From contig CAXWPJ010000010.1 of NCBI GenBank assembly GCA_963664115.2, positions 64,001 to 128,000 on the forward strand: a stretch of DNA of 64,000 nt, read 5' to 3'. Shown one piece after another: positions 1-39,279 of this stretch. The translations under genes were made by a program, and so were the position numbers. The DNA comes from Terriglobia bacterium (GTDB lineage: Bacteria > Acidobacteriota > Terriglobia > 20CM-2-55-15). The stretch's first letter is position 1, and each line of letters begins with the position of its first letter. The notes below the pieces were generated by a model. The model saw only the letters and a program-made list of their open reading frames with translations, was not told where the DNA came from and searched no databases.

Positions 1-716
1 ACCCCACGGGGCCGGATCTTCTCAAACGACGCCCGGAACCCCACCCGTGGCGCCGGCAGCGTCACTTCCGTCAATATCTCGTTGTACCGCACCACATGCG
101 ACTGGATCCGGCCGTCCACCATCATGTCTCCCGGTACCAACTGTTCCACACTCAACTCCTTCGTCCCCAACGGTCCCACCAGCTTCACCGTCGCATCAAA
201 CGGGATCAGGGCCGGCGCCGCATCCCCCGGATACACCGCGTAGCACAACCGTCCCCCCATCGCCGAGTGGTAATAGCTGTTGTCTCCGATCGCTCCATGG
301 CAGATGTAGCCCCCGTTGCGATAGCACGCATACCCCCCTCTCAGGTACTGGCACCACACCTCCTGCAACAGGTCCCCGCCCAACGTCGACGCGTTCCTCA
401 ACTCGGGCGAGGAAATCATATTCATCGCTTCTATCAGCATCGGGTACTTCCGCCCCACCAACGCCGAATCCGCAATCTCCGACAGCTTGGTCAGCGCCCC
501 GATATCCACGCCCCCCGTCGCATTCTCCCGGATGTAGCTCAGGTTTGGAATTCCCTTCACATCCACCAGATAACTCGGCGCCTGATCCAAGCGGTTCTTC
601 AAGCGGATCAGCAGGTCCGTCCCCCCCGCATACACCCCCGCTTCCGTTCCATGCAGCGTCAATATCTGGATCGCTTCATCCATGCTCGTCGGCCGATATA
701 TCGATACTTTCTTCAT
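1..716 (-). CDS. Molybdenum hydroxylase FAD-binding subunit (PaoB/YagS-like, with 4Fe-4S insert), copy A; 3' end runs off the window
   Basis: Near-identical to 7096..7811. ATG at 716 overlaps the stop of the upstream Mo subunit (ATGA). AGGTDL FAD motif and Cys-rich insert are present. Confidence 0.9.
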   Translation of the reverse strand, partial: MKKVSIYRPTSMDEAIQILTLHGTEAGVYAGGTDLLIRLKNRLDQAPSYLVDVKGIPNLSYIRENATGGVDIGALTKLSEIADSALVGRKYPMLIEAMNMISSPELRNASTLGGDLLQEVWCQYLRGGYACYRNGGYICHGAIGDNSYYHSAMGGRLCYAVYPGDAAPALIPFDATVKLVGPLGTKELSVEQLVPGDMMVDGRIQSHVVRYNEILTEVTLPAPRVGFRASFEKIRPRG

Positions 717-3229
717 GCCCCCGCCTCCCTCTCTTTCAATCCCGCCATGATCTTGTCCCGCGTGATCGGATGCTCCCGGATTCGAACCCCGCACGCGTTG
801 TAAATCGCGTTCGACAATGCGCCGGGCACGGACCCGATCGATGTCTCACTGAAGCTCTTGGTCCCAAAGAACCAGCGAGGCTCCAAACTGTCCACGAACA
901 GGTTCGTCTGGTCGTCGGGAGCATCCATGATCGTCGGCAGCCGATAGGACAGATAGCCGACGCTGTAGTGACGCGTACCCGGAAATTCTCTATCCCACGG
1001 AAGCGGATCCGTCGCGATCTGAACGCTCTGCATCAGGGACCCGTGCATATCGGCTGCGCCCACCAGGGGGTTGACGATCAACCCGGTATCGTGACCATAG
1101 ACCGACCTCAGAAAGCGCCAGTCGCCTGTAAAGGTGTCCACTTCCACTTCGACAAAGCAGGCTCCAACGCCCTTGTTGTTCACCCTTCCTTCACGGCTGC
1201 CGCCTCCCCGACCCGTTTGACTCACGACGCCTCCATTAGCCAGGGCCAGTGCGGCGAAGGTCGTTCGCTTTTGGGGGTCTTCTGTCGATGAAATGACGCC
1301 GTCGCGGATCTGGAGCGTAGACGCATCCACGTTCAGCGAATTCGCCGCGCGGTTGAGAAGGGAGTTCTTCAGCTTGTCCGCGGCGATACAAATCGGCCCT
1401 GCCTGCTGGGTGATGGTTCGGCCGGCAAACCAGCGCCCGCTTTCCGGTGCCGTCTCCGTGTCTCCCCATACGACCCGGATATAATCCCGAGTTGTGAATC
1501 CGAGGATTTCGGCGACCATGTGAGCTGGCGCGGTGGCATGGTTCGTGCCGCTGTCAGGAAGAGCGAAGCGCATGGTCACGTAACCGTCGGCATCCACTTC
1601 CACCTGAGCGCCGTAGGATCCGCCGAAGCCGCCGAACTCGGCGCCCGTCACCCTCTCGAAGTAGAGCTCTTCTTCGGTGTAACCGCACTGGCCCCCATGG
1701 TGCTGAGACATCGCCATACCCAACCCCCTTTTGAACCTCCCGGGGTTACCACCCGGCACCGGATTCCTCTGATCCCAGCCAAAGGCCTTCGCGCTCTCTT
1801 CGAGCACTTCGATGCCGGCGTGCGAGTCATACGTATATTGATCTTCCCCGGGCCCTCCAATGCTTACCAGGCCGGGATCGCCGGGCTTTGCGACGTTGAT
1901 CAGGCGGAACTCGACGGGATCCATCCCCAAAGCGACCGCCATTTCGTCGATCATGTTTTCCCAGGCCCATTTGGATTCCTGCTGCTGATAGCTCCGAGAC
2001 GGACCGATTCGGATCGAGTTGGTCTTGTAGCAGTACCACGTGGATTTAATGTGAGCCACCCGAGCGCCGTACAATTCGATCGGAGTCGCGCAGTGGCCTC
2101 CGCCCCATGTGTCGTTTGTGTCTCCGGTGCCCATGTAGACGTTGCTTTCGATCGCTGTGATGCGCCCGTCATTCATGGCGCCCACCTTGAGCACCGCTAT
2201 ATTTTCCGGCTTGACCTGGAGACGCGCCAGTTCCTGATCCTTTGAGAGCATCAACTTGACAGGCCGACCCGCCAATTTCGCCAGATGAGCGATAAATGGA
2301 TTGAGGTAGGATCCTTCCATCGCGGATCCGAACGTACAGCCGTTGTACTTGTTGATGTAATGGATGCGCTCCGGATCGATACCCAGCCCTCGGGCCATCT
2401 CGGCACGGTAGGGGTGAATGCCCTGATTCATGGCCCAGAAAGTGAGCTGGTCGCCGTCCCACTTGGCAACACCGCCGAGGGGCTGCATGGGAACCGAAAC
2501 CCCTCCAGCAAAGTAATACGTGAACTCACGGACGACATCCGCTTCCGCAAATCCCTCTTCGACGTTGCCCTGTTGACCCACCCAGCTCGCATTCGGATCG
2601 TAGAAGAAGTCATCCGGTCGACGTTGATTGAGATTCCCTCTTCCCTGATTGAGATCGGGTGCGTCAGGAGCCATGGCCTGCTCGACGGTCGACGCGGACG
2701 GAAGGACCTCGTAGTCCACTTCGATTGCGGCGAGAGCGTCCGCGGCGAGATCTTCCGTCTCTGCGGCAACGAAGGCTACGATCTCGCCCTGAAAGTTGAG
2801 ATCGCGGGACAAGGGGTGGTTGGCGGGGCCGTTTTCATACGTCAGTATTGCCGAAACACCTGGCATCCGCTCCGCCCTGGAAATGTCGAGGTTCCGAATC
2901 CTCGCACGCGGATGAGGACTGATCAGGACTTTCGCGTACTGCATGTCGGGCAGCCACACGCGGGTGGCATACTGAGCCGTCCCGAGAAACCGTGGTACGG
3001 AGACCTCGGGCATAGGCGGCATCGGCTTTCCAACTACGTTGAGATTCTCAGGCGCGTAGCCCTGCCACTTCTTCGTCACGATATTCGCATCGGCTCCGCG
3101 ACCCTCCATCAGGTCCGGACCGGGCGCGTGGCCGCCACCTGTGGAAAAGTCGCGCACCATGGGCAGCTTGATCTGAATAATGTGATCCAGACTGGCTTCG
3201 ATTTTCGGTATACCGTTTTCCTGACTCAT
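713..3229 (-). CDS. Xanthine dehydrogenase-family molybdopterin-binding subunit, copy A (838 aa)
   Basis: SPHPRARI hammerhead region, GQIVA-like GEIVAFVAAE, DPVEFR, EVEVD-TG-W and NAIYNACGVRIREHPIT C-terminus are typical of the family. Confidence 0.93.
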   Translation of the reverse strand: MSQENGIPKIEASLDHIIQIKLPMVRDFSTGGGHAPGPDLMEGRGADANIVTKKWQGYAPENLNVVGKPMPPMPEVSVPRFLGTAQYATRVWLPDMQYAKVLISPHPRARIRNLDISRAERMPGVSAILTYENGPANHPLSRDLNFQGEIVAFVAAETEDLAADALAAIEVDYEVLPSASTVEQAMAPDAPDLNQGRGNLNQRRPDDFFYDPNASWVGQQGNVEEGFAEADVVREFTYYFAGGVSVPMQPLGGVAKWDGDQLTFWAMNQGIHPYRAEMARGLGIDPERIHYINKYNGCTFGSAMEGSYLNPFIAHLAKLAGRPVKLMLSKDQELARLQVKPENIAVLKVGAMNDGRITAIESNVYMGTGDTNDTWGGGHCATPIELYGARVAHIKSTWYCYKTNSIRIGPSRSYQQQESKWAWENMIDEMAVALGMDPVEFRLINVAKPGDPGLVSIGGPGEDQYTYDSHAGIEVLEESAKAFGWDQRNPVPGGNPGRFKRGLGMAMSQHHGGQCGYTEEELYFERVTGAEFGGFGGSYGAQVEVDADGYVTMRFALPDSGTNHATAPAHMVAEILGFTTRDYIRVVWGDTETAPESGRWFAGRTITQQAGPICIAADKLKNSLLNRAANSLNVDASTLQIRDGVISSTEDPQKRTTFAALALANGGVVSQTGRGGGSREGRVNNKGVGACFVEVEVDTFTGDWRFLRSVYGHDTGLIVNPLVGAADMHGSLMQSVQIATDPLPWDREFPGTRHYSVGYLSYRLPTIMDAPDDQTNLFVDSLEPRWFFGTKSFSETSIGSVPGALSNAIYNACGVRIREHPITRDKIMAGLKEREAGA

Positions 3230-3840
3230 AGTTCTGCCTCCCCGCGCATGACTTTACCCGCATCCACCACCGTCCGTATGATCGCCGGGTAGGCCGCGCA
3301 CCGGCAGATATGCCCCGACAGCGCCATCTTGACTTCGTCCACCGTCGGGTCCGGGTTCTCGTCGAGCAGACCCTTCGCCGTCACTTCCCATCCCGGTGTA
3401 CAGAATCCGCAGTCGGCCGCCACGTACCGGTGCCCCACCGCCTGGATCGGATGCAGATTGTCTGCGTCGCCCAGGCCTTCCACCGTGAATATGTCTTTCT
3501 CCCTCGCCTCCGTCGCCAGGGTGTGGCAGGAATAATAGGGCGTCCCATCGATCAGGACGCTGCAGGCCCCACAACTGGCCCGGTTGCAGCTCCGGTTCGT
3601 CCCCGTCAGCGCCAGCTTCATCGCGATCACTTCCCACAAGGTCGTCCGGGCCTCGTATTCAGCCTGGTAGGTGGCTCCATTGATTATGAACGTCCCGATC
3701 TCCACCGTCATCGGTGCGGCGATACCCGCCGCCTGGGCCGGGGCCGCCGATGCTGTCACCGAGCGGTAACCGCCCACCGTCGTCAGGACGACCGCACCCG
3801 AGCCGGCCGCCTTCAGGAAATGTCTCCGGGAATACCTCAT
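3226..3840 (-). CDS. Tat-exported 2x[2Fe-2S] subunit (PaoA/YagT-like), copy A
   Basis: MRYSRRHFLK Tat signal; CNRASCGAC, DCGFCTPG and ICRC motifs; GGAGG RBS before ATG 3840. Confidence 0.92.
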   Translation of the reverse strand: MRYSRRHFLKAAGSGAVVLTTVGGYRSVTASAAPAQAAGIAAPMTVEIGTFIINGATYQAEYEARTTLWEVIAMKLALTGTNRSCNRASCGACSVLIDGTPYYSCHTLATEAREKDIFTVEGLGDADNLHPIQAVGHRYVAADCGFCTPGWEVTAKGLLDENPDPTVDEVKMALSGHICRCAAYPAIIRTVVDAGKVMRGEAEL

Positions 3841-4253
3841 CTTCAAACCTCCATCGGTTCGCGAAATACTCAGAAAACGAAGGATTTTTTGGTAAGTGTG
3901 AACTCTGGCCATACTCCCAAAATCCCGCTCTCGTGTCTACTAGTTTCACCCCCTTCAGGCCGAAATGTCGCAATGGAACTTCCTGGAAGATGGCCCCGCA
4001 GGAGCGGGCCGAATCCAGAACTCTGATTGACCTAAACCTTTCCCTTTTGTAGACTTCTGCCCATCTCAAGCCGCGACACCAACCATAAGATGCCGTGTTG
4101 GCAATGCTTCGAGTGGGCAGCGTACAAGAGACGATCATTCATCGGAAGTTAGTGTTGATTCCCTTCAAACCGAATTTTGGGCGATGTCGACCCCAGCCCC
4201 TCTGCACAGGAGCGTCCGGATGGACTCCGTACGGTCGGCGATTGAAAGCCCAT

Positions 4254-6701
4254 ATGATCTGGTGTTCGGTTCTGCTGGCGGTTTTGTTGACAACCCCGAC
4301 TCACGGCCAGTTCACCGTTACGAACCCGCTGTATGAGGTCCGAGACCAGGTGGCCCAGGTACTGGCGGATGCGGAGCTTCCCTTTACCCCAGACCAGGAG
4401 AGGCAGCTGGCGCTGCTGTTGGAGGACCAACGCCAGGCATCAGAGGACCTGTTTGACGTCATCATGGATTTCAGTGCGGGACCACCGCAGGGTGAGGATC
4501 TGGACCGTGCACTCGCCGGCATCCAGTGGATGCATGACGAATTCAGAATGCGCCTCCCCGAGTTCTTGACGGCGGAACAAAGGGCCGTGTGGGAAGAGTT
4601 CGAATCCGATGGAAGCGTCATCGGAGCCGAGATCGAAGGGGCCGGAGTCGGCGGCGCTCAGACGGAACGGATTCAGCAAATTCGAATCGTCAACAATCCG
4701 TTCAACTCGGAAACAGCGAGAAGCGGTAGCCGGGGACCCAGTGGTGGAGGAGAGCGCACCGAAGTCATCCAGCGCGGCGGAACAGGAGCGTACCACGGCA
4801 ATTTCATGGCGATGTTCCAGGATGAAGCGCTCAACGCTCGAAACCCTTTCGCCGCCAACAAGCCTCCCTACTACGAACGGACGATCAATGGCAACTTCAG
4901 TGGGCCCTTGCTCCAGAATCGGCTGACGATTGATCTGACGTATAACGACAACCGGCAGGAAAACGTCGGAACCGTAAAAGCCGAAACCCCGGATGGGCCG
5001 TTTTCGCTCGGGATCACGCGGCCCAACGTCAATCGATTCTTCGAGGGTCGCGGCATCCTGCAGCTCTGGGAATCGCATTCGCTGCACTTCGGCTTCACAT
5101 ATGGAATGGACACCCAGGAAAATCAGGGCATCGGCGACTTCACCCTGCCCGAACGAGGCTCGAATTCAGAGGGTCGCAACTATGACTTCGATGTGCGTCA
5201 GATCTCGGAACTTTCCCCACGAACGGTTCACGAAACCCGCTTCTCATGGCGAAAGGTAAGGGACGAGACCCTTCCGATTACGGACGGGGTTGCATTCAAC
5301 GTTCTGGACGCATTCAACGGAGGTGGCGCGCAAAGCCGGGTGGAGAGCGACGTGCGGAGCTACGAATTCGGCAACCTTCTATACCATGTCGGCGACCGAC
5401 TGACCTTGAGAGCCGGGTTCACCGGTTCCTACGGCCGCGAGCACCTGATCCGCGAGAACAACTTCGTCGGCGAATTCACCTTCTCAGACCTGGACAGCTA
5501 CCGGGAGGGAAGGCCTCTCCAATTCCGGGTGACCCGAGGCGACCCCGAGCTCGACTGGAGCCAGTTTCGGGCCGGCCTGTTTGTCCAGAACGACCTGCGC
5601 CTGACGAATCGATTCACGCTATTTCTTGGCCTGCGCTACGAAAGCCAAAGCGGCATGGAGGACAATCACAATCTGGATCCGCGCCTGGGTTTCGCCTATG
5701 CCGTTGGGAGTGCGACGGTCATCCGGGGAGGCATGGGCATGTTTCATACGCGTCTGGGATACCCCGACGTCCGCACTCTGCTCCGACTCGACGGCACCCG
5801 ACAGTTCGACGTCCAGATCGATAATCCGGGTTTTCCGGATCCATTCGTTTCCGGCGACGTAAGGATCAATCCACCGTCTTCACGACGCATCGCTTCGGCC
5901 GAACTCGGCACCCCGTACTACATCTCCACGGCCGTTTCGCTGGAACAGAGTCTCCCCGCCAACCTCTTCATCACCGTAGGCTTTAACCACAATCGAGGAA
6001 TCCGCTTGCTGCGAAGCCGGAACCTGAATGCTCCCTTACCCGACACGGGGGAAAGGCCCTTTCCGGACCAGGGACAGATATTCGAGCTGGGATCGGAAGG
6101 GTACGGAGTTCACAAGAACTTCACCGTCGATCTGAGGCAGCGTTTCAGCATCTTCACCGTTACGGCGAGCTACAGGCACGGTTCCAGTCACAACGACGAT
6201 TCCATAGGCGGCAATGCGGGGACGGAAGGTATCGGCTTCAGAATACCCGCGAACAGCTATGATCGCCTGGCGGACTGGGGGCCTTCGGGATTCCTGCTGA
6301 GTCGTCAATTCAGTGCGGGCATCAATTCCAGATTACCCTTCGATGTGTATGTGAATACGGCGATCGCAGCCAACAGCGGCCGCTTCTACACGATCACAAC
6401 CGGAAGAGACGACAACAACGATGGTGTTTTCAATGACCGTCCACCCGGAGTCACCAAGCACAGCGAGAACGGACCCCACTTTTTTAATGTCAGCTTCAAC
6501 GTCTCCAAAGCGTTCGAACTGGGCGCGACCCGACGCGGCGCCTCCGGTCCCCAGGTCAATGTTTTTGCAAACTTCAACAACGCGTTCAATATGACGCACC
6601 TCGGCACGCCAAGTGGCGTTCTCACCTCACCTTTCTTCGGACGATCCTTCAGCGCGCAACAGCCCCGCGAAATCGAAGCCGGGCTGCGGTTTCAGTTCTA
6701 A
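4254..6701 (+). CDS. Oar-like / TonB-dependent-receptor-like outer-membrane beta-barrel protein
   Basis: Signal peptide from ATG 4254 (ORF is open from 4095); ALNARNPFA, PRLGFAY and C-terminal QPREIEAGLRFQF motifs. Confidence 0.82.
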   Translation: MIWCSVLLAVLLTTPTHGQFTVTNPLYEVRDQVAQVLADAELPFTPDQERQLALLLEDQRQASEDLFDVIMDFSAGPPQGEDLDRALAGIQWMHDEFRMRLPEFLTAEQRAVWEEFESDGSVIGAEIEGAGVGGAQTERIQQIRIVNNPFNSETARSGSRGPSGGGERTEVIQRGGTGAYHGNFMAMFQDEALNARNPFAANKPPYYERTINGNFSGPLLQNRLTIDLTYNDNRQENVGTVKAETPDGPFSLGITRPNVNRFFEGRGILQLWESHSLHFGFTYGMDTQENQGIGDFTLPERGSNSEGRNYDFDVRQISELSPRTVHETRFSWRKVRDETLPITDGVAFNVLDAFNGGGAQSRVESDVRSYEFGNLLYHVGDRLTLRAGFTGSYGREHLIRENNFVGEFTFSDLDSYREGRPLQFRVTRGDPELDWSQFRAGLFVQNDLRLTNRFTLFLGLRYESQSGMEDNHNLDPRLGFAYAVGSATVIRGGMGMFHTRLGYPDVRTLLRLDGTRQFDVQIDNPGFPDPFVSGDVRINPPSSRRIASAELGTPYYISTAVSLEQSLPANLFITVGFNHNRGIRLLRSRNLNAPLPDTGERPFPDQGQIFELGSEGYGVHKNFTVDLRQRFSIFTVTASYRHGSSHNDDSIGGNAGTEGIGFRIPANSYDRLADWGPSGFLLSRQFSAGINSRLPFDVYVNTAIAANSGRFYTITTGRDDNNDGVFNDRPPGVTKHSENGPHFFNVSFNVSKAFELGATRRGASGPQVNVFANFNNAFNMTHLGTPSGVLTSPFFGRSFSAQQPREIEAGLRFQF

Positions 6702-6818
6702 ACAAGCCACTACCGGGGTTTCGCCATCGGCTGGTGGGAAGAATTCAGGCCAAAAACAAAAGCGAGGCAAGCGGCCCGTTTTGGGAGTTGCCTCGCTTCA
6801 GGTAGACCTCGCGACCGT

Positions 6819-7811
6819 CTATGCCGTCGCCAGCTTTTCCAGGCCGGATCGCAACAGGCCCTTCGCCATGTCGATCTTCATCGCGTTGTACTTGAGCGGG
6901 GCCGCCTCCGTCAGTGCCGTCGACTGTGCTTCCAGGGCCAACTCCGGGCTCAAGGCTTTCCCTCTCAGAAAGTCCTCCACCGCACGTTCTCTCCATGGCC
7001 TTCCGGCGATCCCGCCGAAGACCACACGCGAGTCCGTGATCGTCCGCCCGCTCATCTCCAGTCCCATCGCCAGCGACGCCATCGCGAAGTCCCACACCCC
7101 CCGGGGCCGGATCTTCTCAAACGACGCCCGGAACCCCACCCGTGGCGCCGGCAGCGTCACTTCCGTCAATATCTCGTTGTACCGCACCACATGCGACTGG
7201 ATCTTCCCATCCACCATCATGTCCCCCGGTACCAACTGTTCCACACTCAACTCCTTCGTCCCGAGCGGCCCCACCAGCTTCACCGTCGCATCAAACGGGA
7301 TCAGGGCCGGCGCCGCATCCCCCGGGTACACCGCGTAGCACAACCGTCCCCCCATCGCCGAGTGGTAATAGCTGTTGTCTCCGATCGCTCCATGGCAGAT
7401 GTAGCCCCCGTTGCGATAGCACGCATACCCCCCTCTCAGGTACTGGCACCACACCTCCTGCAACAGGTCCCCGCCCAACGTCGACGCGTTCCTCAACTCG
7501 GGCGAGGAAATCATATTCATCGCTTCTATCAGCATCGGGTACTTCCGCCCCACCAACGCCGAATCCGCGATCTCCGACAGCTTCGTCAGCGCCCCGATAT
7601 CCACGCCCCCCGTCGCATTCTCCCGGATGTAGCTCAGGTTTGGAATTCCCTTCACATCTACCAGATAACTCGGCGCCTGATCCAAGCGGTTCTTCAAGCG
7701 GATCAGCAGGTCCGTCCCCCCCGCATACACCCCCGCTTGGGTTCCATGCAGCGTCAATATCTGGATCGCTTCATCCATGCTCGTCGGCCGATATATCGAT
7801 ACTTTCTTCAT
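6819..7811 (-). CDS. Molybdenum hydroxylase FAD-binding subunit with 4Fe-4S insert, copy B (330 aa)
   Basis: AGGTDLL; RNASTLGGDL; four Cys in WCQY..ACYR..ICHG..LCYA as in PaoB/HcrB; WDFA motif. Confidence 0.93.
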   Translation of the reverse strand: MKKVSIYRPTSMDEAIQILTLHGTQAGVYAGGTDLLIRLKNRLDQAPSYLVDVKGIPNLSYIRENATGGVDIGALTKLSEIADSALVGRKYPMLIEAMNMISSPELRNASTLGGDLLQEVWCQYLRGGYACYRNGGYICHGAIGDNSYYHSAMGGRLCYAVYPGDAAPALIPFDATVKLVGPLGTKELSVEQLVPGDMMVDGKIQSHVVRYNEILTEVTLPAPRVGFRASFEKIRPRGVWDFAMASLAMGLEMSGRTITDSRVVFGGIAGRPWRERAVEDFLRGKALSPELALEAQSTALTEAAPLKYNAMKIDMAKGLLRSGLEKLATA

Positions 7812-10360
7812 GCCCCCGCCTCCCTCTCTTTCAATCCCGCCATGATCTTGTCCCGCGTGATCGGATGCTCCCGGATTCGAACCCCGCACGCGTTGTAGAT
7901 GGCATTCGCAATGGCACCGGGCACAGAGCCGATACTGGTTTCGCTGAAGCTCTTGATCCCATAAAACCAACGGGGCTCCAGGCTATCCACAAAAACCTGG
8001 GTCTGACGTTCCGGCACATCCATGATCGTTGGTAGCCGGAACGAGAGATAGCCGACGCTGTAGTGACGCGTACCCGGAAACTCCCGATCCCAAGGAATAG
8101 AATCCGTCGTCATCTGGGTGCTCTGGATCAGAGATCCCAGCATGTCAGCTTCTGCGACCATCGGATTGACGACCTTGCCGGTGTCATGGCAGTAGGCCGA
8201 ATTGACCATCCGCCAATCGCCGGTCCAGGTGTCGACTTCCACCTCCAGAAAACACGCGCCGACACCTTTCGCGAGCGCACGCCCCTGATCCTTGTGGACA
8301 CCCCTGCCCGTATGGATTATGGAACCTCCGTTAGCCAGCGCCAGCTCCGCAAACGTGGTGGTTTTTTCCGGGTCCGCTGTTGAAGAAATAACGCCATCTC
8401 GAAATTCGAGCGTTGCCGGGTCCACCCCGAGTGCGCTTGCCGCACGTTCGAGAAGATCGGCACGGAGTTTATTCACCGCACTACAGATGGCCGCCCCTTG
8501 CAAGGTGATCGTCTTACCCGCGAGCCACTGCTGGCTCAGAGGGGTCAGGTCCGAATCCCCCCAGACGACCCGGATCTGGTCCCGGGTGGTGAACCCCAGC
8601 ATTTCCGCAACAACATGAGCGAGTGCGGTGTCGTGGTTGGTGCCGCTGTCGGGAAGCGCGTTTTTCATGATGACTTCGCCGTCGGTGTTCAGTTCCAGGT
8701 CCGCCGTAAAGATCCCGAACTGGGGGCCACCTCTGTCGCCGTCTATCAACCGCTGGAAAGCGAGTTCGCCTTCGTGATAGCCCATGTGTCCGGGATGATG
8801 CTGGGACATGGCAACGCCAAATCCTCTCTTGTACCGACCGGGGTTGCCACCGGGAACCGGATTCCGCTGCTCCCATCCAATGGCCTTCGCGCCCTCATCG
8901 ATAACTTCCACAGAAGCGAACGAATCGTAAGTTACTGCTCCGTTCTCCGACTCGTATCGTGATCCAAAGTCGGAGTGCCAGGCCATGGTGAGACTTTGCC
9001 CTGGCTTTGAAACGTGCAGCCGACGGAACGGCACGGGGTCCATTCCCGCAACTTCGGCCATTTCATCAATCATGCTTTCCCAGGCCCACTTGACCTCCTG
9101 TTGGGTGCAACTCCGGGAACAACCCGATCGGATCACGTTGGTCTTGTACGCGTAGCTGAGGGTCTTCCAATGCGGCACATCCGCGGTGTAGAGTTCCATG
9201 TTGTTCTTGGAAATCTCCGCGGTGGCCGCGATCCCGGCGCCGTCCATATCCCCACTGCTCATGTGCATTTCGTACAATATGGTGCTGATTCGCCCGTCTT
9301 TAAGACCCACCCGGAACCGCGTCATGTTTTCCGGTTTGATGTTGAGGTGCGCCAGTTCCTGGTCCTTCGGAAGCATCAGTTTGACGGGGCGGTCTGTGAC
9401 CTTTGCCATGTGGGCCAGGAAGCTGTTGAACTTGCTTGTCGACATCGCGGACCCGAACGTGCAGCCGTTCCACTTGTTGATGTAATGAATATCTTCCGCG
9501 TCGATACCGAGGCCCCGCGCTATGTCGGCACGGTAGGGGTAGATGCCCTGATTCATACCCCAGAACGTCAACTTGTCGCCCTCCCAACGGGCCACCCCGC
9601 CACAGGGTTGCATCGGAACGGGTATCGCCCCTCCGAAGTAATAGCTGAATTCCCGGATCTCGTCGGCTTCTGCAAACCCCTGTTCGATATTGCCGCGCTC
9701 GGAGACGAACGTGGCATCCGGGTCGTAATGAGGGCTGTTCGGGTTCATCAGCAGGAGGTTGCCGCGTCCCTGCCGGAGATCCGGTGCATCAGGCGCCATC
9801 ACCTGCTCCAGATTTCCCGCGCCGGGTAGGATCTCATAGTCCACCTTGATCGCTGCGGCTGCGTCCTCGGCCAGATCTTCAGTTTCGGCGGCCACAATAG
9901 CCACGATGTCCCCAACATAGTCGAGTTCGTCTCCATTGAGCTCCAGGCGCGCGGGATTCCCGTTCGGAGCGTTCAGATGGGTGAGGATATAGGCCACCCC
10001 CGGCATCCGTTCCGCTTCTGCAGTATCCATACTCCTGATCCGGGCGTGCGGATGAGGAGACGCAAGGACCTTCGCGTAGAGCATGCCGGGCATCCACACT
10101 CGGGTGGCATACTGGGCCGTTCCCAAGTACCGTGGTATCGCGACTTCCGCCATCGGCGGCATCGATTTCCCGACCACATTGAGGTTCTCCGGCGGATAGC
10201 CCTGCCATTTCTGCGTAACGATTTGTTCGTCGCCTTCAATGAGGGTGTCTTCTGGACCGTGACCTCCACCTGTGGAGTAATCGCGCACCATGGGTTGTTC
10301 GATCATGATTACGTCATGCGGCCCTGTTTCGATCTTCGGTATACCGTTTTCCTGACTCAT
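7808..10360 (-). CDS. Xanthine dehydrogenase-family molybdopterin-binding subunit, copy B (850 aa)
   Basis: Same family motifs as copy A; ATGA overlaps on both sides. Confidence 0.93.
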   Translation of the reverse strand: MSQENGIPKIETGPHDVIMIEQPMVRDYSTGGGHGPEDTLIEGDEQIVTQKWQGYPPENLNVVGKSMPPMAEVAIPRYLGTAQYATRVWMPGMLYAKVLASPHPHARIRSMDTAEAERMPGVAYILTHLNAPNGNPARLELNGDELDYVGDIVAIVAAETEDLAEDAAAAIKVDYEILPGAGNLEQVMAPDAPDLRQGRGNLLLMNPNSPHYDPDATFVSERGNIEQGFAEADEIREFSYYFGGAIPVPMQPCGGVARWEGDKLTFWGMNQGIYPYRADIARGLGIDAEDIHYINKWNGCTFGSAMSTSKFNSFLAHMAKVTDRPVKLMLPKDQELAHLNIKPENMTRFRVGLKDGRISTILYEMHMSSGDMDGAGIAATAEISKNNMELYTADVPHWKTLSYAYKTNVIRSGCSRSCTQQEVKWAWESMIDEMAEVAGMDPVPFRRLHVSKPGQSLTMAWHSDFGSRYESENGAVTYDSFASVEVIDEGAKAIGWEQRNPVPGGNPGRYKRGFGVAMSQHHPGHMGYHEGELAFQRLIDGDRGGPQFGIFTADLELNTDGEVIMKNALPDSGTNHDTALAHVVAEMLGFTTRDQIRVVWGDSDLTPLSQQWLAGKTITLQGAAICSAVNKLRADLLERAASALGVDPATLEFRDGVISSTADPEKTTTFAELALANGGSIIHTGRGVHKDQGRALAKGVGACFLEVEVDTWTGDWRMVNSAYCHDTGKVVNPMVAEADMLGSLIQSTQMTTDSIPWDREFPGTRHYSVGYLSFRLPTIMDVPERQTQVFVDSLEPRWFYGIKSFSETSIGSVPGAIANAIYNACGVRIREHPITRDKIMAGLKEREAGA

Positions 10361-10974
10361 AGTTCTGCCTCCCCGCGCATGACTTTACCCGCATCCACCA
10401 CCGTCCGTATGATCGCCGGGTAGGCCGCGCACCGGCAGATATGCCCCGACAACGCCATCTTGACTTCGTCCACCGTCGGGTCTGGGTTCTCGTCGAGCAG
10501 GCCTTTCGCCGTCACTTCCCATCCCGGTGTACAGAATCCGCAGTCGGCCGCCACGTACCGGTGCCCCACCGCCTGGATCGGATGCAGATTGTCTGCGTCG
10601 CCCAGGCCTTCCACCGTGAATATGTCTTTCTCCCTCGCCTCCGTCGCCAGGGTGTGGCAGGAGTAATACGGCGTCCCCTCGATCAGGACGCTGCAGGCTC
10701 CACAACTGGCCCGGTTGCAGCTCCGGTTCGTCCCCGTCAGCGCCAGCTTCATCGCGATCACTTCCCACAAGGTCGTCCGGGCCTCGTATTCAGCCTGGTA
10801 GGTAGCGCCATTGATTATGAATGTCCCGATCTCCACCGTCATCGGTGCGGGAATACCTGACGCCATCTGAGTCGAAGCCGCGGAACCGGCGACCGAGCGG
10901 TAACCGCCCACCGTCGTCAGTACGACCGCGCCCGAGCCGGCCGCCTTCAGAAAATGCCGTCGAGAATACTTCAT
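10357..10974 (-). CDS. Tat-exported 2x[2Fe-2S] subunit, copy B
   Basis: MKYSRRHFLK Tat signal; Cys motifs identical to copy A. Confidence 0.92.
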   Translation of the reverse strand: MKYSRRHFLKAAGSGAVVLTTVGGYRSVAGSAASTQMASGIPAPMTVEIGTFIINGATYQAEYEARTTLWEVIAMKLALTGTNRSCNRASCGACSVLIEGTPYYSCHTLATEAREKDIFTVEGLGDADNLHPIQAVGHRYVAADCGFCTPGWEVTAKGLLDENPDPTVDEVKMALSGHICRCAAYPAIIRTVVDAGKVMRGEAEL

Positions 10975-11215
10975 AACCTCAAACCTCCATCGGTTTGCGC
11001 GATACCCGGAACAACCGGGATTTTTAGCTGGAATTGACTCGTGCCACGCTCGCAAATTTACCGGCCAGGGCTTTGATCGATCAGCAATCGGCCTTAGGCC
11101 AGTGATCCCCTTATTCTTGAAGCACCCGCTCCCGCGACGACCAACTCTCTACAAATGGCACGCTGGGCGGTGCTCACGAGGCGCGTTGTCATCGCGCCGC
11201 ACTACGGCCACACGC

Positions 11216-11644
11216 TCACTCGGCAGGTGGATGCACATCGGGCCGAAACTGCTTGTGACAGTTGACGCACGATGCGTCAAGCCGTTCACTGAGTGCAGCA
11301 AGCGCATCCACATCCCTGTCAGCCACCGCCCGGTATGCTGCGTCTCCCACGTCCACGAGGGCTCTTGAAGCCTGTACCCATTCGCCGCCTCGATCACGCA
11401 TCGTGAGCACGTTTCCTGATTCCGCCAAAAGGATAGCGCTCCGCTGAACTTCCATCCACTCGGCCTCAGAAGCAGGCCCGCCCCGGTTGATGTGCAACAG
11501 TATCCCGTTCGCTCCCGGGTAGACCATGCCTACCATGAGTTCGCTCATCGTGCCGACGGGCTGATACGACGCTTGAGGGGCCAGCGCCCGGGTTGGACTG
11601 GCCAGTAGCAGAATTCCGATGGACAGCAATCCGATATTTCGCAT
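11216..11644 (-). CDS. Periplasmic monoheme cytochrome c (class II / c'-like)
   Basis: Sec signal peptide, helical-looking sequence, C-terminal CVNCH; AAGGAG RBS. Confidence 0.8.
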   Translation of the reverse strand: MRNIGLLSIGILLLASPTRALAPQASYQPVGTMSELMVGMVYPGANGILLHINRGGPASEAEWMEVQRSAILLAESGNVLTMRDRGGEWVQASRALVDVGDAAYRAVADRDVDALAALSERLDASCVNCHKQFRPDVHPPAE

Positions 11645-11967: not shown

Positions 11968-13125
11968 ATGGAAGATCTGTGGAACAATACCGAAAAACTC
12001 CTGGCTGACGGAAAACCCTTGGTGTTGGCAACGATTATCCGGACTCGTGGTTCGGTTCCACGGGAAGTCGGTGCCAAGATGGTGATCGGGCGCACCGGCC
12101 ATCCTTTCGGGACAATTGGCGGGGGCTGTGGAGAAGGCGAAGTTTTACGACGCGCCTACCCTCTTTTTGAAGAAAAAATGCCGTCTCGGGTGGTGCAAGT
12201 AGATCTAACCGGGGACTTTGACCAGGAAGAAATTCAGGTCTGCGGTGGCTTGATGGATGTCGCACTCGACCTGTGGCAACCCAACGAGCACAGAGATCTG
12301 GCGCATGCTTTAGCCGAAGCCACCCGTACCCACCGACCCGCTGCACTGGTGACGGCTATTACCGCCATGGCTGATATACCCGCGGGAACCAAGTGCTGCC
12401 TATCGATCGGTTCAAAAGGCGCAACCCTAACGCCTTCACTGGAGCTGGATCCGGAAATTCTGCAAGCGCTGGCGGACTCACTTGCTGCGGGAACACCACA
12501 ACTGTTTTCGATTTCCCCGGAGGGCAAAGTCGTCAAGGATGCGGCGGCCAACGGAAAGCAGTGGCCACAGATATTCGTCGACGTGCAACCGGGTCTCCAG
12601 ACACTTCTGATCGTTGGGGCCGGTCATATCGCCCAGCCGCTGTGTGACATGGGCCACCTGCTCGGTTTCCGAACGGTAATCGTGGACGACCGCTGGGCGT
12701 TCGCCAATCGTGAACGTTTCCCGAAAGCCACAGCGATTGAGGTGGGCTCGTTCGTTGAGACCCTGGAGAAACTTGACATCAACAACCAGACTTTCGCCGT
12801 GGTCGTTACCCGCGGCCACAACTGGGACGAGGCCTCAGTCCGGACCATTCTCGGAAAGAAGCCTGCCTACCTCGGCATGATCGGCAGCAAACGGCGGTCG
12901 CGGGCAACGATCGAGCGTTTGGCCGAACAGGGTTTTAGCCCTGAAGAACTGAGTCGAATCCACACGCCTATGGGATTGGATCTATCCGCCGAAACACCTG
13001 CGGAGATTGCCGTCGCGATCGCTGCGGAGATCGTGAGGATTCGTCGTCATGGGCCTCTGGAAACGATTTCTCTGGCAGCCAAGGCCCGCCCGGGCGGCGC
13101 GTACAAGTTCGCGAGTGTGGAGTAG
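11968..13125 (+). CDS. xdhC: XdhC/CoxI-family Moco insertion chaperone
   Basis: GSVPREVGAKM, GTIGGGCGE, CGG, GAGHIA, YLGMIGSKRR and ETPAEIAVAIAAE motifs. Confidence 0.92.
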   Translation: MEDLWNNTEKLLADGKPLVLATIIRTRGSVPREVGAKMVIGRTGHPFGTIGGGCGEGEVLRRAYPLFEEKMPSRVVQVDLTGDFDQEEIQVCGGLMDVALDLWQPNEHRDLAHALAEATRTHRPAALVTAITAMADIPAGTKCCLSIGSKGATLTPSLELDPEILQALADSLAAGTPQLFSISPEGKVVKDAAANGKQWPQIFVDVQPGLQTLLIVGAGHIAQPLCDMGHLLGFRTVIVDDRWAFANRERFPKATAIEVGSFVETLEKLDINNQTFAVVVTRGHNWDEASVRTILGKKPAYLGMIGSKRRSRATIERLAEQGFSPEELSRIHTPMGLDLSAETPAEIAVAIAAEIVRIRRHGPLETISLAAKARPGGAYKFASVE

Positions 13126-13166: not shown

Positions 13167-13751
13167 GTGGTCAGTAGACGCCAATTTTTCTCGGGTTTTA
13201 TAAAGGGGCCACAGGGGGTTCCTCTTTCGGAAGAGGACCGGGAGGCACGCTACCAGGCGCTGGAAACTCATGTTCAGACAAAACTGCTCCCGACTCGTTT
13301 CGCGCTCACCGAAACAGAACAATCCCAATTGTCATCTCGTATTCGCGCTTTCCTCGGCAGGACGAGCGATGCGGACCTCCTGTCAACGGGCATCATCACT
13401 CGCTTGAAGCTGTTGGTTGAGGATGTCCTCGAACCCTGGCAGATGTCGGGCGACGCAGTCACGGCCCGGAAAAAACCCCAGGAATTAATGTTCGCGGCCA
13501 TAGAAAGCGTGCCGTTATTTTTGAAGGCGGCGACTCAGGAACAAATCGATTCTCTGATGAAAAGGTTTGAACTCATCAACAGACTCGACCTTGAAGTGCG
13601 TCTTCGAGAAGACGTCGCAATCTGGATCCAGAGCATGGAGGAGACAGAGCTGCGCGAATGCGACACCGAGAGCATCCAGGAGTCCGCTTTCGCTCATCTC
13701 AGCGAGTTAATTCAAGGGGACGTACACTTCAGAATCGATTCTCGATTCTGA
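13167..13751 (+). CDS. Hypothetical helical protein with an N-terminal SRRQFF motif
   Basis: 194-aa ORF directly after xdhC, with an AAGGA RBS-like sequence. Confidence 0.65.
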   Translation: MVSRRQFFSGFIKGPQGVPLSEEDREARYQALETHVQTKLLPTRFALTETEQSQLSSRIRAFLGRTSDADLLSTGIITRLKLLVEDVLEPWQMSGDAVTARKKPQELMFAAIESVPLFLKAATQEQIDSLMKRFELINRLDLEVRLREDVAIWIQSMEETELRECDTESIQESAFAHLSELIQGDVHFRIDSRF

Positions 13752-13766
13752 AGTGTACGTCCCCTT
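13714..13766. repeat. Perfect 25-bp inverted repeat (REP-like; possible bidirectional terminator)
   Basis: AAGGGGACGTACACTTCAGAATCGA-ttc-TCGATTCTGAAGTGTACGTCCCCTT between convergent genes. Confidence 0.9.
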
Positions 13767-13781
13767 TTCGGCACGCCTGCA

Positions 13782-14375
13782 TCAGCCGCCCGAAGACTTA
13801 CCCAAATACCGCACGATGAGCAAGGTCATGTCGTCCCCCTGCTGGGCGCCCTGACAAAATTTCGCGACTGCGTTAAGGATGGCGTTCTGTAGTCCTTCCG
13901 CCGACTGACCCGCGTTCGAGCGAACGACCTCCGATAAGCGATCCATGCCGAATTCCTCGTCATGGACGTCAGTGGCTTCGTTGATCCCGTCGGTAAACAT
14001 CACCAGAGTGTCACCGGGTTCGAGCTGGGTGGATTTCGAAGAGAATTCCGCATCTGGAAACAGTCCGATGGGGAAACTCTCCGACTCAAAAGGCGCCGTC
14101 ACCTCAGTTCCTCGAAGCAACAGGGCCGAATGATGACCGGCGTTGATGAATTCGGCACGACCATCCTCGCCCATGACCCCCAGGAAAACAGTGGCGTAAT
14201 TGTGGGGTTCCGAGCGCGTCCAGAGGTACTGATTGAAGTAATTAACCAGTCGTGAGGGATCGGGCGTCAGCGTGATTCCAGAAAACCCGCCCTGCAACAT
14301 CGCAGTCAGCAATGCCGCCGACAATCCCTTACCCGACACGTCAGCAATAACGAAAGCCGCACGTTGGGCCTCTAG
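13782..14375 (-). pseudogene. 3' fragment of FHA-GAF-SpoIIE (PP2C) phosphatase, split by an IS
   Basis: ADVSGKG, NAGH, FTDGINEA and DDMT PP2C motifs. Joins in frame to the 5' part when the IS is removed (DVVEL|EAQRAAF). Confidence 0.9.
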
Positions 14376-16224
14376 TCCCAAAACAAGCGCATAACCAGTC
14401 CGCCGAGGCCCAGTTCGCGCCGATAGAATTCGAGGCATAGAATCCCGTTCCCGGATGGCCTGTTCCAGGTATCGAGTTTCTGTTGAATCTGTTTCAGTTC
14501 AGCCTCGCTGGTGTTGGACGGTTGACAGAAACCGGGACCTCGATCGCCCGGGCTCAGAGTCATGATCGGGTCAACATCGCAGAGGCTGACGCAACACATC
14601 CACCCCGCGGAACAAGACCGGCAACCACCGGTTCCAGGCCAGGATCCGGAACAGAATGCGCCGCCCGGTGCGCACGAGTTGGCACGGCACAAGCATGAAA
14701 GCGTTCAAGAAGGTTTTGAACTCCATGCGCAGCACGGTTTGCTTCTCAGCCTGATATTTTTGGCCCCAACGTCCGGTTTCGGGAAGCAGCAATGCAAACC
14801 ACGCTTTCAGTGTCCAGGCCAGTGACGCGATCACCATGTAGGCCCAGTTGCTGGTCTGATCTCCGACCGGCATCCGCAACGCCTGAACGCCGTTCTTCAA
14901 CTGCTCAATGAGATTCTCCTGATTGCACCGTTGATTGGCACGCATCACAATCTGGTCGGCCGGATCCGAACGGTTGGTAATGTAGAAGAAGTACCGGATG
15001 TCGTCAAACAACACCTGCTCTCCTTTGGCCACCGACAGATTCTTCCGCACCACGACGACACGGTAGTCCCGATCGCAGGCTCCGGGTCGATACCGAAACT
15101 CGGCCACATCCTCACCCTGCAAGCGGATATTGTCGAAACCGCGCTGCCGAACGATCTCTTCCTTCACGTTGTCGGGACGTTGGCGCGGTTCGGTCGCCAC
15201 GTCGTATTTCGCGGGCCGTTCCAGGCGCTTCCACTGGCGCGGCTCCAGTTCATCGGCCCGGGCCTTCAGGTTCGCCATCGCGTCAATCCCGAATATGAAA
15301 CCCACCTGCTGGTCGTCCCATCCGTCCAGATGCCGGGTCTGGCTGAAGTCCGTGTCCCCGCGCAGCAGGATCTGGCGAAACCCCGCATGCCGGCACAATG
15401 CGATGGCTTGGTCGAACCGGACCGCGGCTCCTTCATGCGACGGCCGGTTGCCGCTACGATTGACCAGATACAGCGGTTCGGCGGTGTTGGCCAGCGAGAT
15501 CATCAGCGGGTGATATCCCCACGTCCCGTCGTAGGCCACGTCCATCCCTTGCTTGCATTCCCCCGTGGTTTCGGCCAGTGTCCCGTCCGCGTCCAACACC
15601 GCTTCTTCGAAAAACGCCGCCGGTTGCTGTCGCCAGACTCCGAGCCGGACTTGATTGGTTGCCTCCATCAGACACTCCACGTCGTCGGCCTCGAATCTCC
15701 GGCAGAAGTCTCCCGCCGTCGTCGGATCCGGAATCCGTTGCGCTCCCAGCGCATCCAGATACACCGCATCGTTGCGCCGCAGTTCGATGTCTTCCAGGCA
15801 CGTTCCTCCGCTCAAGGCGTTGTAGGCGATGTTCAGCACGTGATCCGACTCGTGATACGGCAGGTGCCGCTTCAACACATGCACGCCCTTGTCGATGGCT
15901 TCGATCAGCCCGGTCCGCCGCGCCACCAGTTGCATCGTCCCGATACCACCAACCGATGTGCCCCGCGTCCGCTCTCCCATCTCGTACTGAATGTTGCTCG
16001 CCGAAAACATCGGCTCTACCTGATCCGTCCAATGCCGGTCCCCAAGCCGACGTTCGATTCGCCGCTTGCGGTTCCTCATGTTCTTGCGCGTATAATCGTT
16101 CATCTGAAATGCCTCCTTTTCCGAAGAATCTGTTCAAGGTTTTTTTCGCACGGAGAGGGGGCATTTCGGGTACTTCCGCTCTTATTGCACTATCATTTCC
16201 TCGTCAATCACGCTTGTTCAGGGG
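14376..16224 (-). mobile_element. IS1380-family insertion sequence
   Basis: Imperfect terminal IRs (TCCCAAAACAAGCG / CGCTTGTTCAGGGG); CTAG(T) target duplication at 14372 and 16225. Confidence 0.88.
14571..16103 (-). CDS. IS1380-family DDE transposase (510 aa)
   Basis: LDADGT, GYHPL, LLRGDTDF and RCNQENLIEQLK motifs. Confidence 0.88.
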   Translation of the reverse strand: MNDYTRKNMRNRKRRIERRLGDRHWTDQVEPMFSASNIQYEMGERTRGTSVGGIGTMQLVARRTGLIEAIDKGVHVLKRHLPYHESDHVLNIAYNALSGGTCLEDIELRRNDAVYLDALGAQRIPDPTTAGDFCRRFEADDVECLMEATNQVRLGVWRQQPAAFFEEAVLDADGTLAETTGECKQGMDVAYDGTWGYHPLMISLANTAEPLYLVNRSGNRPSHEGAAVRFDQAIALCRHAGFRQILLRGDTDFSQTRHLDGWDDQQVGFIFGIDAMANLKARADELEPRQWKRLERPAKYDVATEPRQRPDNVKEEIVRQRGFDNIRLQGEDVAEFRYRPGACDRDYRVVVVRKNLSVAKGEQVLFDDIRYFFYITNRSDPADQIVMRANQRCNQENLIEQLKNGVQALRMPVGDQTSNWAYMVIASLAWTLKAWFALLLPETGRWGQKYQAEKQTVLRMEFKTFLNAFMLVPCQLVRTGRRILFRILAWNRWLPVLFRGVDVLRQPLRC

Positions 16225-17320
16225 CTAGTTCCACAACATCGAAATAGTCACCGCCTACGGAATAGCACGACTCGTTGAGTCCCGACACGTCAAGGAAATC
16301 GATTTGCTTGAAGCCTTTGGGCAGTAGGCGTTGCTGGATCTCGCGTGCGACCGTCAGATCCTGCTCAATCTGGCGACGTTCGCGCTCACGCTCCATCAGT
16401 CGGGCATTGTCCATGACGCTGGCCGCTTCGATGGCAAGCGCGTCCAGTATCTGTGACCCGAGACCTGAAAATGCCGCAGGCTTCCGGCTGTCCAGATACA
16501 GGAGTCCGAGCAATGAGCTGCCTGAGGAAATGTTTGTCGTGTCTGAAGCATCGCTCTCGGCATGCGCGTAGAGAGGGATCGCTATCACCGACCGCAGTTG
16601 CTGATTGACGATGCTGGCGGCCTGTTTGACTGATTCATCTGCGAGTTCGATATCCTTCTGAATGAAACCTCGACGCTCTCGAAGGGCGTGTTTGATCGCC
16701 GTCTCGCTCGGTGCCAGGGATTTAACGGGCAGATTAAATCCACCCCGGCTCCGGGCTACAACGGGTTCCCGCTTCCCTTCCCCATCCGAAGCCAGCAGCA
16801 ATCCGCGGTCTGCTTCCGTGATCAGGATCGCCCGGTCCACCATGGCTCCAAGGACTTCAAGATAGGGCATGCGCGACTGCAGAAGCGTCGTGGCCTCGAG
16901 CAGAAGACTCAGGTGGCGCAGGTCGTGCCCACCCGTGTCGTCAGCCTCTATTGTTCCAAAACGCGAAAGGAGATCGCTGAGCGACTCCTGAGTCGCGCCG
17001 ACACGAAAAATCAGTTGAATCGCTTCAGTGTTGGAGAACGTAACGACGGCCCCGGACATTAGAGCCATGGACCCCTCGACCTGGACGCCGTTCACGAACA
17101 GTCCGCGGCGTTGGCCGAGATCCTCGATAAAATACTCATCACCACGGCAGACGATGGCCGCGGACTTCCGGGACACGCGAACATCATTGATATCAAGATC
17201 GTTACCGTCCCCACCACGTCCTACGTGGAACGGATATCGGCTTACTGGTACGGAACGTACGATTTCGCCATCTTCGACAATGTCGATAACCGTTTCTTGT
17301 GAGGGGGCAACCTTGGACAT
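16225..17320 (-). pseudogene. 5' fragment of FHA-GAF-SpoIIE phosphatase (RsbU-like)
   Basis: FHA (VGR..VSR..DLG..G.FVNG), GAF (SVIAIPL..LGLLYLDS), AREIQQRLLP and VGGDYFD. Start could be 17320 or 17380. Confidence 0.88.
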
Positions 17321-17409
17321 ATTGCTCGCATGGTTTGGACGCCGCAGGCGGAGGTTCCCAGCGACGGCGCCCGTCATCATATGCGGGAAATTACAAAGAC
17401 ATGACTGCG

Positions 17410-17757: not shown

Positions 17758-17938
17758 AGATATCTCCTGATGAATTGGCCAAAGCTACTGACACTCTATG
17801 GCGCGCCGCCGAACATTCGCAACCAAAAACACCTGAACGAAAACGGGATTTCCAAGCTGAGCCAAATCAGGCCGTCCCTGGCCACACCGACTTTAATTGA
17901 TCCTGATTCCTTCCTTCCGTATGATTTACCATACCAGC

Positions 17939-17985
17939 GGACGTACACTTCAGAATTTGGGACGAATTCTGAAGTGTACGTGCCC
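17939..17985. repeat. Second copy of the REP-like palindrome
   Basis: ACGTACACTTCAGAATT-7nt-AATTCTGAAGTGTACGT; same arms as 13714..13766. Confidence 0.88.
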
Positions 17986-18014
17986 TAATCGAAATTTCAA
18001 CGCAGGAGATCTCT

Positions 18015-38892: not shown

Positions 38893-39279
38893 ATTAGCGT
38901 CGGGCCCACCGGCCCCGATTTCCCCTCCATTAAGAGTGCACTTACGATCCGCCATTGCCTCTGTTGTGGGAGCTCGAACGCCGGCCGGTCCCCCCACGCC
39001 CGCATTAGCGTCGGGCCCACCGGCCCCGATTTCCCCTCCATTAAGAGTGCACTTACGATCCGCCATTGCCTCTGTTGTGGGAGCTCGAACGCCGGCCGGT
39101 CGAACGCCGGCCGGTCCCCCCACGCCCGCATTAGCGTCGGGCCCACCGGCCCCGATTTCCCCTCCATTAAGAGTGCACTTACGATCCGCCATTGCCTCTG
39201 TTGTGGGAGCTCGAACGCCGGCCGGTCCCCCCACGCCCGCATTAGCGTCGGGCCCACCGGCCCCGATTTCCCCTCCATT
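38893..39279. repeat. Tandem array of a 111-bp unit (3 full units + 39 bp)
   Basis: Unit starts at 38893, 39004, 39130 and 39241; the second unit has an internal 15-bp duplication. Confidence 0.97.

Follow-up and report, generated by a model that had tools for sequence, protein, structure and literature searches.

Near-uniform electron-transfer genes and diverged catalytic genes in predicted molybdenum hydroxylase operons of an Acidobacteriota genome

How can the genes of a single operon appear to differ widely in age? This question is raised by a 64,000-nucleotide (nt) stretch of DNA from a Terriglobia bacterium (G000:C10:64001-128000, where G000 is the genome carrying it; hereafter, the window), which harbors two operons, A and B, each encoding an iron–sulfur (Fe-S), a molybdenum-containing catalytic (Mo) and a flavin adenine dinucleotide (FAD) subunit of a predicted molybdoenzyme. 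As a sequence-only reading of the window had described, they lie about 7.1 kb apart with the order FeS-Mo-FAD. Both are on the minus strand, and in each full operon the stop and start codons of consecutive genes overlap (Table 1). That reading had counted by hand 15 differences over 716 nt of the FAD gene and, for the Fe-S gene, 11 over its 3′ 492 nt, both of which proved exact.

Unequal divergence within the operons

The three genes have aged unevenly, as the hand counts had implied. By the Nei–Gojobori method, silent divergence (dS) between operons A and B was 1.45 for the Mo pair (non-synonymous divergence, dN, 0.275; 65% amino acid (aa) identity), as opposed to 0.18 for Fe-S (dN 0.018) and 0.076 for FAD (dN 0.006). 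A predicted extra copy, operon C, was indeed found directly left of the window, bringing the G000 total to four FeS-Mo-FAD operons (A–D) and one orphan Mo gene (E). Across all four operons, dS ranged from 1.17 to 1.50 for Mo, 0.12 to 0.21 for Fe-S and 0.03 to 0.08 for FAD.

Identical tracts of 157 and 117 nt run across both A/B gene junctions into the ends of the Mo gene, and of the 11 exact A/B matches of at least 40 nt none lies within the Mo core. Each operon pair has 9–15 such matches, almost all of which fall within Fe-S, FAD or the ends of Mo (together, the arms), while operons A and D share 313 identical nt at 490-802; orphan Mo E, serving as an internal control, has no exact match of at least 40 nt with any operon. 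The earlier description of identity that enters the Mo ends and then drops sharply is thereby upheld for tracts and core, although the edge is partly graded, because reduced silent divergence reaches 60–90 codons into the Mo 5′ end in some operon pairs. The longest identical run exceeded 2000 shuffles in six of six pairs, which restates the gene-level contrast and adds no separate evidence. The arms are not identical, either: over the whole Fe-S gene, A and B differ at 33 positions, with the signal-peptide region more diverged, and every copy has alleles of its own within a mosaic of allele sharing among the four.

Overwritten arms and resident catalytic genes

Two explanations had been offered for this mosaic, namely homogenization of the flanks or exchange of the Mo core between constant arms. 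As anticipated, the subunit trees were incongruent: Mo genes fell into classes A–G, all of them supported at 100% across species, and two singletons, H and I; the genes for Fe-S and FAD instead clustered largely by genome. We compared 15 complete operons of G000, G001, G002 and G004, setting aside orphans, a chimera, G010 and G019. Median dS of same-genome paralogs versus same-class orthologs (21 pairs each) was 0.27 versus 0.52 for FAD and 0.34 versus 0.58 for Fe-S, but 1.42 versus 0.68 for Mo. In topology tests (2000 replicates, called too few by the program), grouping by Mo class cost 839 log-likelihood units (lnL) for FAD and 478 for Fe-S, while grouping by genome cost only 15 for FAD (approximately unbiased test, p-AU 0.24) and 11 for Fe-S (Shimodaira–Hasegawa test, p-SH 0.45). 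For Mo, the class tree was itself the maximum-likelihood tree, and grouping by genome cost 6897 lnL.

Background dS relative to G000, taken from neighboring and housekeeping genes, was 0.72 for G001, 0.44 for G002 and 0.55 for G004 (medians of 54, 27 and 34 open reading frames, respectively, some of which are shadow frames or mobile genes), and most Mo orthologs have a dS equal to this level. Every class stays at its own locus in all genomes that have it: the class A locus adjoins an outer-membrane barrel gene in four of four genomes, class B adjoins the chaperone gene XdhC in all three genomes having B, and class D follows E and a HAD gene in four of four. These syntenic orthologous loci predate the Fe-S/FAD similarity. 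Since Mo divergence matches the background, the classes keep their neighbors and Fe-S and FAD genes group by genome, the Mo genes are old residents whose arms have been overwritten. We are highly confident that the overwriting occurred by gene conversion.

Some observations sit poorly with ongoing conversion everywhere. The tendency of paralogs to be nearer within a genome than to orthologs shows clearly in G000, partially in G001 and G002 and weakly in G004, and is absent from G010. Within-genome FAD dS is 0.33–0.49 in G004, about the between-species level, 0.59–0.66 for operon A of G001 and 1.9 in G010 (Fe-S, 2.0–3.4), and strict by-genome grouping of Fe-S was marginally rejected (p-AU 0.027; 2000 replicates). 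Given the high FAD values in these three cases, conversion is intermittent, and it is strongest in G000.

Might these patterns have arisen without conversion? If purifying selection alone were at work, the three genes would be equally old and Fe-S and FAD just slow, as fits G010 (FAD dN 0.085, dS 1.9) and the external control of E. coli dmsB and ynfG, whose 94% protein identity coexists with saturated silent sites (proportion of silent differences, pS, 0.74). In G000, however, it is the silent sites that differ ~7- to 50-fold between genes, even though FAD orthologs of other species reach a dS of 0.39–0.71, so that these sites are free to change, and third-position GC content (GC3) is 0.70–0.82 in Mo, Fe-S and FAD genes alike. 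In G000, as in part of G001 and G002, low within-genome dS refutes selection alone, leaving it extremely improbable as a general account. Assembly collapse or chimerism, named early on as a potential source of identical arms, is very unlikely, bordering on negligible, because of the Mo-core contigs, the copy-specific alleles and the recurrence of the same arm/core pattern in other assemblies. With short-read contigs from four runs, each of a different study, placed on window positions 1-11300, the Mo B core was a single 2233-nt contig in all four runs, with 0–1 differences, and the Mo A core (2100 nt) was recovered in two, with no difference. Summed contig depth over the FAD arm was mostly 2.5–4x that of unique flank, as expected of multi-copy near-identical DNA, albeit depth is not copy number. 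Still, none of the listed short-read contigs spans a whole operon, and the source sample may be among the runs. In run X5, of the 23 Mo A variant positions among those listed (40/118), five carried the G002 allele and 14 the G004 allele, with an identical Mo B core contig; this hints at another class-A allele in the sample or a co-occurring relative and was not used as evidence. In RNA runs, only 0.16–0.26 of words were present.

Routine exchange of the Mo core between constant arms, by which a locus would change its catalytic class, is improbable and unsupported, as Mo classes are older than the species and fixed at the same loci in four of them. Two cores do look exchanged between species. 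Mo A of G000 and G002 has a dS of 0.13 against a median background of 0.44; its core, unlike its flanks, is ~97–98% identical, with identity mostly 97–99% over window positions 1000-3000 and 98% within FAD at window positions 401-600, compared with 75–91% for Fe-S and the 3′ half of FAD. For Mo C, dS between G002 and G004 is 0.19. A further candidate, at G004:C20:981436, is an in-frame C/F Mo chimera in which 221 nt match C exactly and 2367 nt match F exactly, with a crossover window of 20 nt (C20:981636-981656); through it, the core of orphan F comes to stand behind an Fe-S gene. Against swapping stands that no class changes locus in any genome having it, and that in the cross-species cases same class replaces same class. 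The chimera is a deletion that removed FAD as well, and it lies inside a mostly 100% identical inverted duplication near two contig ends, such that it may be a real recombinant or a haplotype or assembly product. Nor is gene flow special to Mo, given that an insertion sequence (IS) gene (G000:C4:289-1263) and its copies in G002 and G004 show a between-species dS of 0.12–0.13 against a background of ~0.45–0.55; judged from these sequences, mobile DNA has moved recently among the three genomes.

Of the two initial explanations, conversion of the flanks is thus the one borne out by trees, dS and fixed loci. Alongside it, there appears to have been one cross-species Mo-core replacement, that of Mo A, same class for same class. 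Of the cross-species pairs examined, one for operon A and one for operon B, each has a FAD 5′ half of low divergence; as the FAD genes of G000 are also near-identical to one another, an imported tract appears to have spread among the four copies by conversion. It is possible, yet doubtful, that converted arms act as homology landing pads, with a shared export-competent chassis serving up to nine Mo subunits, several of them orphan, and cores moving in between species or from orphan loci. If true, this would amount to a repertoire of periplasmic substrates open to recombination, in an Acidobacteriota subfamily not studied so far.

The inverted near-perfect duplication in G004 (C20:977403-989515 versus 29139-8001) has one copy with the chimera. 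Its copies also differ in which paralog of a tandem outer-membrane barrel gene they carry, which suggests a second recombination between paralogs in this genome.

A predicted exported enzyme with a putatively shared chassis

What kind of enzyme, then, do these operons encode? Matches to PF01315, PF02738, PF20256, PF01799, PF00941 and PF03450 above cut-off predict a Mo subunit with a hammerhead and two molybdenum-cofactor (Moco)-binding domains, partnered by 2x[2Fe-2S] and FAD subunits. Together with a structural model of the Mo subunit (predicted local distance difference test, pLDDT, 87; matches to 1RM6 and 5G5H at E<1e-65), they place the predicted enzyme among the molybdenum hydroxylases (xanthine oxidase family). 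E807 and R416, which we take to be the active-site Glu and a Moco-binding Arg, are invariant in 91 of 91 sequences. Of the two XdhC matches in G000 one alone adjoins these operons, consistent with a predicted sulfurated molybdopterin cytosine dinucleotide or molybdopterin cofactor (Mo-MCD/MPT). The FAD subunit has four Cys that align with those of the [4Fe-4S] insertion in PaoB and 5Y6Q_B. The twin-arginine translocation (Tat) motif previously noticed on the Fe-S subunit recurs as SRRxFLK in all four G000 copies, with a weak PF10518 match below cut-off, and on no Mo or FAD protein; a TatC gene is present in the genome.

No Mo, Fe-S or FAD protein reached any NCBIfam cut-off. Scores were 230–243 versus 1180 for PaoC, 128–130 versus 322 for PaoA, 295–306 versus 995, 165 versus 405 and 123–125 versus 258 for the alpha, beta and gamma subunits of 4-HBCR (4-hydroxybenzoyl-CoA reductase), and 162–173 bits versus 991 for CoxL. 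Form I CoxL was rejected as well: the region of its Cu-binding motif, presumably AYxCSFR, aligns with RS[YCN][QTAEM]QQE, and the CO-dehydrogenase Cys motif is absent.

The gene family was present in 6 of the 41 genomes searched, G000 included. Three of four congeners hold 6–9 Mo genes, namely G001 (nine, with four full operons), G002 (six, with four) and G004 (seven, with three), while the fourth, G003 (95% complete), was without a match to the queries used. Carriers within this uncultured genus thus hold five to nine Mo genes. Sampling across the class gave matches in 15 of 401 genomes (two candidates scored per genome). At E<=1e-150, 535 of 7998 scored candidates matched; numerous among them were Fe-S/Mo fusions of ~1030–1055 aa, two rows named a taxon (Acidobacteriia and Bryobacteraceae), and the holders of matching sequence included seawater metagenomes. 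The fusion form also occurs at G010:C455:42486-45578. Five further genomes, all incomplete metagenome-assembled genomes (MAGs), have family members as follows: three Mo, one Fe-S and one FAD in G041; four, one and one in G042; one each in G043; four Mo with two Fe-S and two FAD matches in G044; and four, three and two in G045.

The orphan Mo genes bear on how the subunits are combined. Classes E–G evolve across species at a dN/dS of 0.05–0.14 (10 pairs), much as classes A–D do (0.04–0.12), and orphans keep the conserved Glu and Arg, but no twin-arginine motif was found at the N-termini of their proteins. On the simplest reading, orphan Mo subunits would assemble in trans with the common Fe-S/FAD module. 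As orphans are under purifying selection without export signals of their own, and two genomes combine 3–4 Mo genes with one chassis, a Tat-exported chassis shared by several Mo subunits is likely. The sequence-only reading had proposed just such a chassis serving a substrate-diversified array; support for it comes from comparison between genomes.

Conversion could instead be real but a neutral by-product, with Mo subunits working only with their co-translated partners, and orphans alone or with other partners; uniformity of the chassis would then mean nothing for function. Sequence similarity alone suffices for conversion, each full operon has kept its own Fe-S and FAD genes with overlapping stop and start codons, and where conversion lapsed (G004, G001 operon A and G010) operons persist without visible loss. 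We nonetheless consider this account unlikely: orphans are conserved across 2–4 species under purifying selection, G041 and G042 have one chassis per 3–4 Mo genes, and in G000, every other Fe-S gene of xanthine-oxidase-family type lies beside a distant Mo gene of its own.

Taken together, we lean towards a combined model in which old, diverged Mo subunits with different substrates use one interchangeable, Tat-exported Fe-S/FAD module kept uniform by conversion. Whole operons would have duplicated long ago, with Mo subunits diverging into classes A–I before the species split. Purifying selection on Fe-S and FAD may have preserved enough similarity for non-allelic recombination, by which these genes and the adjoining 8–29 Mo codons would be repeatedly overwritten, the Mo cores (~36% nucleotide difference) presumably being too diverged for conversion. 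Because a uniform module would accept any Mo subunit, chassis copies would become dispensable and orphan Mo genes could persist. Like PaoABC, the trimer may reach the periplasm by hitchhiking on the twin-arginine signal of Fe-S, and it would most likely oxidize (hydroxylate) aldehydes or heterocycles, passing electrons from Mo via 2Fe-2S and FAD/4Fe-4S to a periplasmic acceptor. Occasionally, a Mo core would be replaced by a same-class allele of a related species. In support of diversified substrates, 20 of 41 class-fixed variable columns fall into six motif-anchored segments comprising 75 of 850 residues, suggesting that class-fixed differences concentrate beside cofactor-binding motifs.

Several points count against this model. 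The completeness of the MAGs G041 and G042 is unreported, and since near-identical repeats drop out of assemblies, one chassis may be an undercount. In both sequence and fold, the closest match is a reductase (4-HBCR), so that catalysis may run in either direction. Lastly, the six segments were chosen by pocket positions of xanthine oxidoreductase once the alignment had been inspected, which makes the enrichment partly circular.

Table 1 Features of the operons, their neighbors and related copies (window positions unless a contig is given)
Feature	Position	Strand	Remarks
Operon A	3840..(left of 1)	-	Fe-S, Mo, FAD
Operon B	10974..6819	-	Fe-S, Mo, FAD
FAD subunit, operon A, 5′ part	1..716	-	330 aa; 3′ end left of window at C10:63724
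Mo (catalytic) subunit, class A	713..3229	-	838 aa; without Tat motif
2x[2Fe-2S] subunit, operon A	3226..3840	-	204 aa; N-terminal twin-arginine motif
157-nt tract	646..802		Exactly equal to 7741-7897; last 29 Mo codons and FAD start
117-nt tract	3204..3320		Exactly equal to 10335-10451; Fe-S 3′ end and first 8 Mo codons
Outer-membrane beta-barrel gene	4095..6701	+	PF25183; marker of class-A locus in all four genomes
FAD subunit, operon B	6819..7811	-	330 aa; protein identical to operon C FAD
Mo (catalytic) subunit, class B	7808..10360	-	850 aa; Glu807 aligned with Glu of PaoC KGVGE
2x[2Fe-2S] subunit, operon B	10357..10974	-	205 aa; PF10518 twin-arginine signal below cut-off (E 9e-4)
Small secreted cytochrome c′-like protein	11216..11644	-	C-terminal CxxCH; PF01322 E 0.003, below cut-off
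XdhC-family maturation chaperone	11968..13125	+	
Operon C, full FeS-Mo-FAD	G000:C10:63479..59312		Directly left of window
Operon D, full FeS-Mo-FAD	G000:C9:1083568..1079449		
Orphan Mo gene E	G000:C9:1087023..1084474		
Mo 3′-end remnant	G000:C2:983724-983870		
Mo 3′-end remnant	G000:C10:24917-24994		
Partial FAD gene	G001:C41:338772-339380		

The Mo remnants in G000 and the partial FAD gene in G001 would fit a turnover in which copies are born and die. The cytochrome c′-like gene, whose product is a candidate electron acceptor, is found upstream of operon B in three genomes (G000, G001 and G002). Conserved neighbors of the array at G000:C10:50010-58948 encode outer-membrane barrels, cytochrome c, DUF6152, metallo-beta-lactamase-fold and Sel1-repeat proteins; mostly secreted-looking, they would fit a cluster for periplasmic uptake and conversion. 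A promoter and terminator scan stayed at chance level (8 promoters versus 5.4 expected; 5 terminators versus 13).

Elsewhere in the window, an FHA-GAF-SpoIIE phosphatase gene (13782-17380), preceded by an anti-sigma-antagonist (STAS) gene, is interrupted by a DDE transposase gene (14571-16103; PF13701). Two related ~50-nt palindromic elements lie at 13714-13766 and 17936-17986, and a 111-nt unit at 38893-39279 is present in ~3.5 tandem copies that are exact except for a short internal duplication.

Comparison with known systems

The predicted enzyme would work like PaoABC yet is not a member of that family. E. coli PaoABC(D) (PDB 5G5G/5G5H) likewise combines a Tat-bearing 2x[2Fe-2S] subunit, an FAD subunit with a four-Cys insertion, a Mo subunit and an XdhC-type chaperone, and has the same fold (template modeling score, TM, 0.75/0.87) and an aligned Glu. 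According to the available sections of the respective papers, its signal-less subunits hitchhike on PaoA via Tat (PMC4273604), and aromatic aldehydes are preferred (PMC3958847). Unlike PaoABC, the present proteins show ~25% identity, scores below NCBIfam cut-offs and an invariant His521 at the position of PaoC Arg440, and they come with the order FeS-Mo-FAD, a ~60-aa family-specific N-terminal extension and 3–9 paralogous Mo subunits per genome. The best Mo match in sequence and fold is 4-HBCR of Thauera aromatica (PDB 1RM6; 26% identity, TM 0.77/0.85), which shares the [4Fe-4S]-type FAD subunit, though the Mo score lies below its cut-off. The related urolithin dehydroxylase Ucdh is described as cytoplasmic in the available text of PMC12771579, whereas these operons carry a twin-arginine motif.

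Numerous paralogous Mo subunits per genome also characterize the CoxL/COG1529 expansions of marine symbionts, for which varied organic substrates were proposed; in one such survey, substrates were unknown for more than half of these proteins (PMC8941161), and the available text of that paper has nothing on shared or homogenized partner subunits. In ynfEFGH of E. coli and Salmonella, the Mo catalytic subunits YnfE and YnfF have diverged, and a single Fe-S subunit, YnfG, is encoded alongside the two (PMC5203670, in its available part). As here, Fe-S paralogs of ynfEFGH/dmsABC are far closer (94% identical) than catalytic ones (67–71%), but these belong to the DMSO-reductase family, carry the Tat signal on the catalytic subunits and owe their similarity to selection only, their silent sites being saturated.

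Should the chassis be shared, one expression construct could serve to screen many uncharacterized xanthine-oxidase-family catalysts by swapping a single gene. Nature also provides, in these operons, a clean example of concerted evolution that is selective for subunits: genes of one operon have very different apparent ages, and dating or functional annotation from the small subunits can mislead. In mostly open papers, supplements aside, we found nothing about this subfamily and nothing about small subunits of molybdoenzymes undergoing conversion. Gene conversion leading to concerted evolution is documented for 26 prokaryotic genes (PMC6053082, whose main text lacks the word 'molybd'), and domain-limited conversion for mtrA (PMC4632066, in its available part). 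The evolutionary mechanism is hence ordinary and already known; what is new is the subfamily and its proposed design of many catalysts on one chassis. In common with the known cases, paralogs of one species resemble each other more than they do syntenic orthologs, subunits of complexes are affected, and one part is converted while another stays distinct. Where the cases listed in those sources, as far as available, are mostly whole complexes that were homogenized, here only the electron-transfer subunits convert, intermittently, and the catalytic gene escapes.

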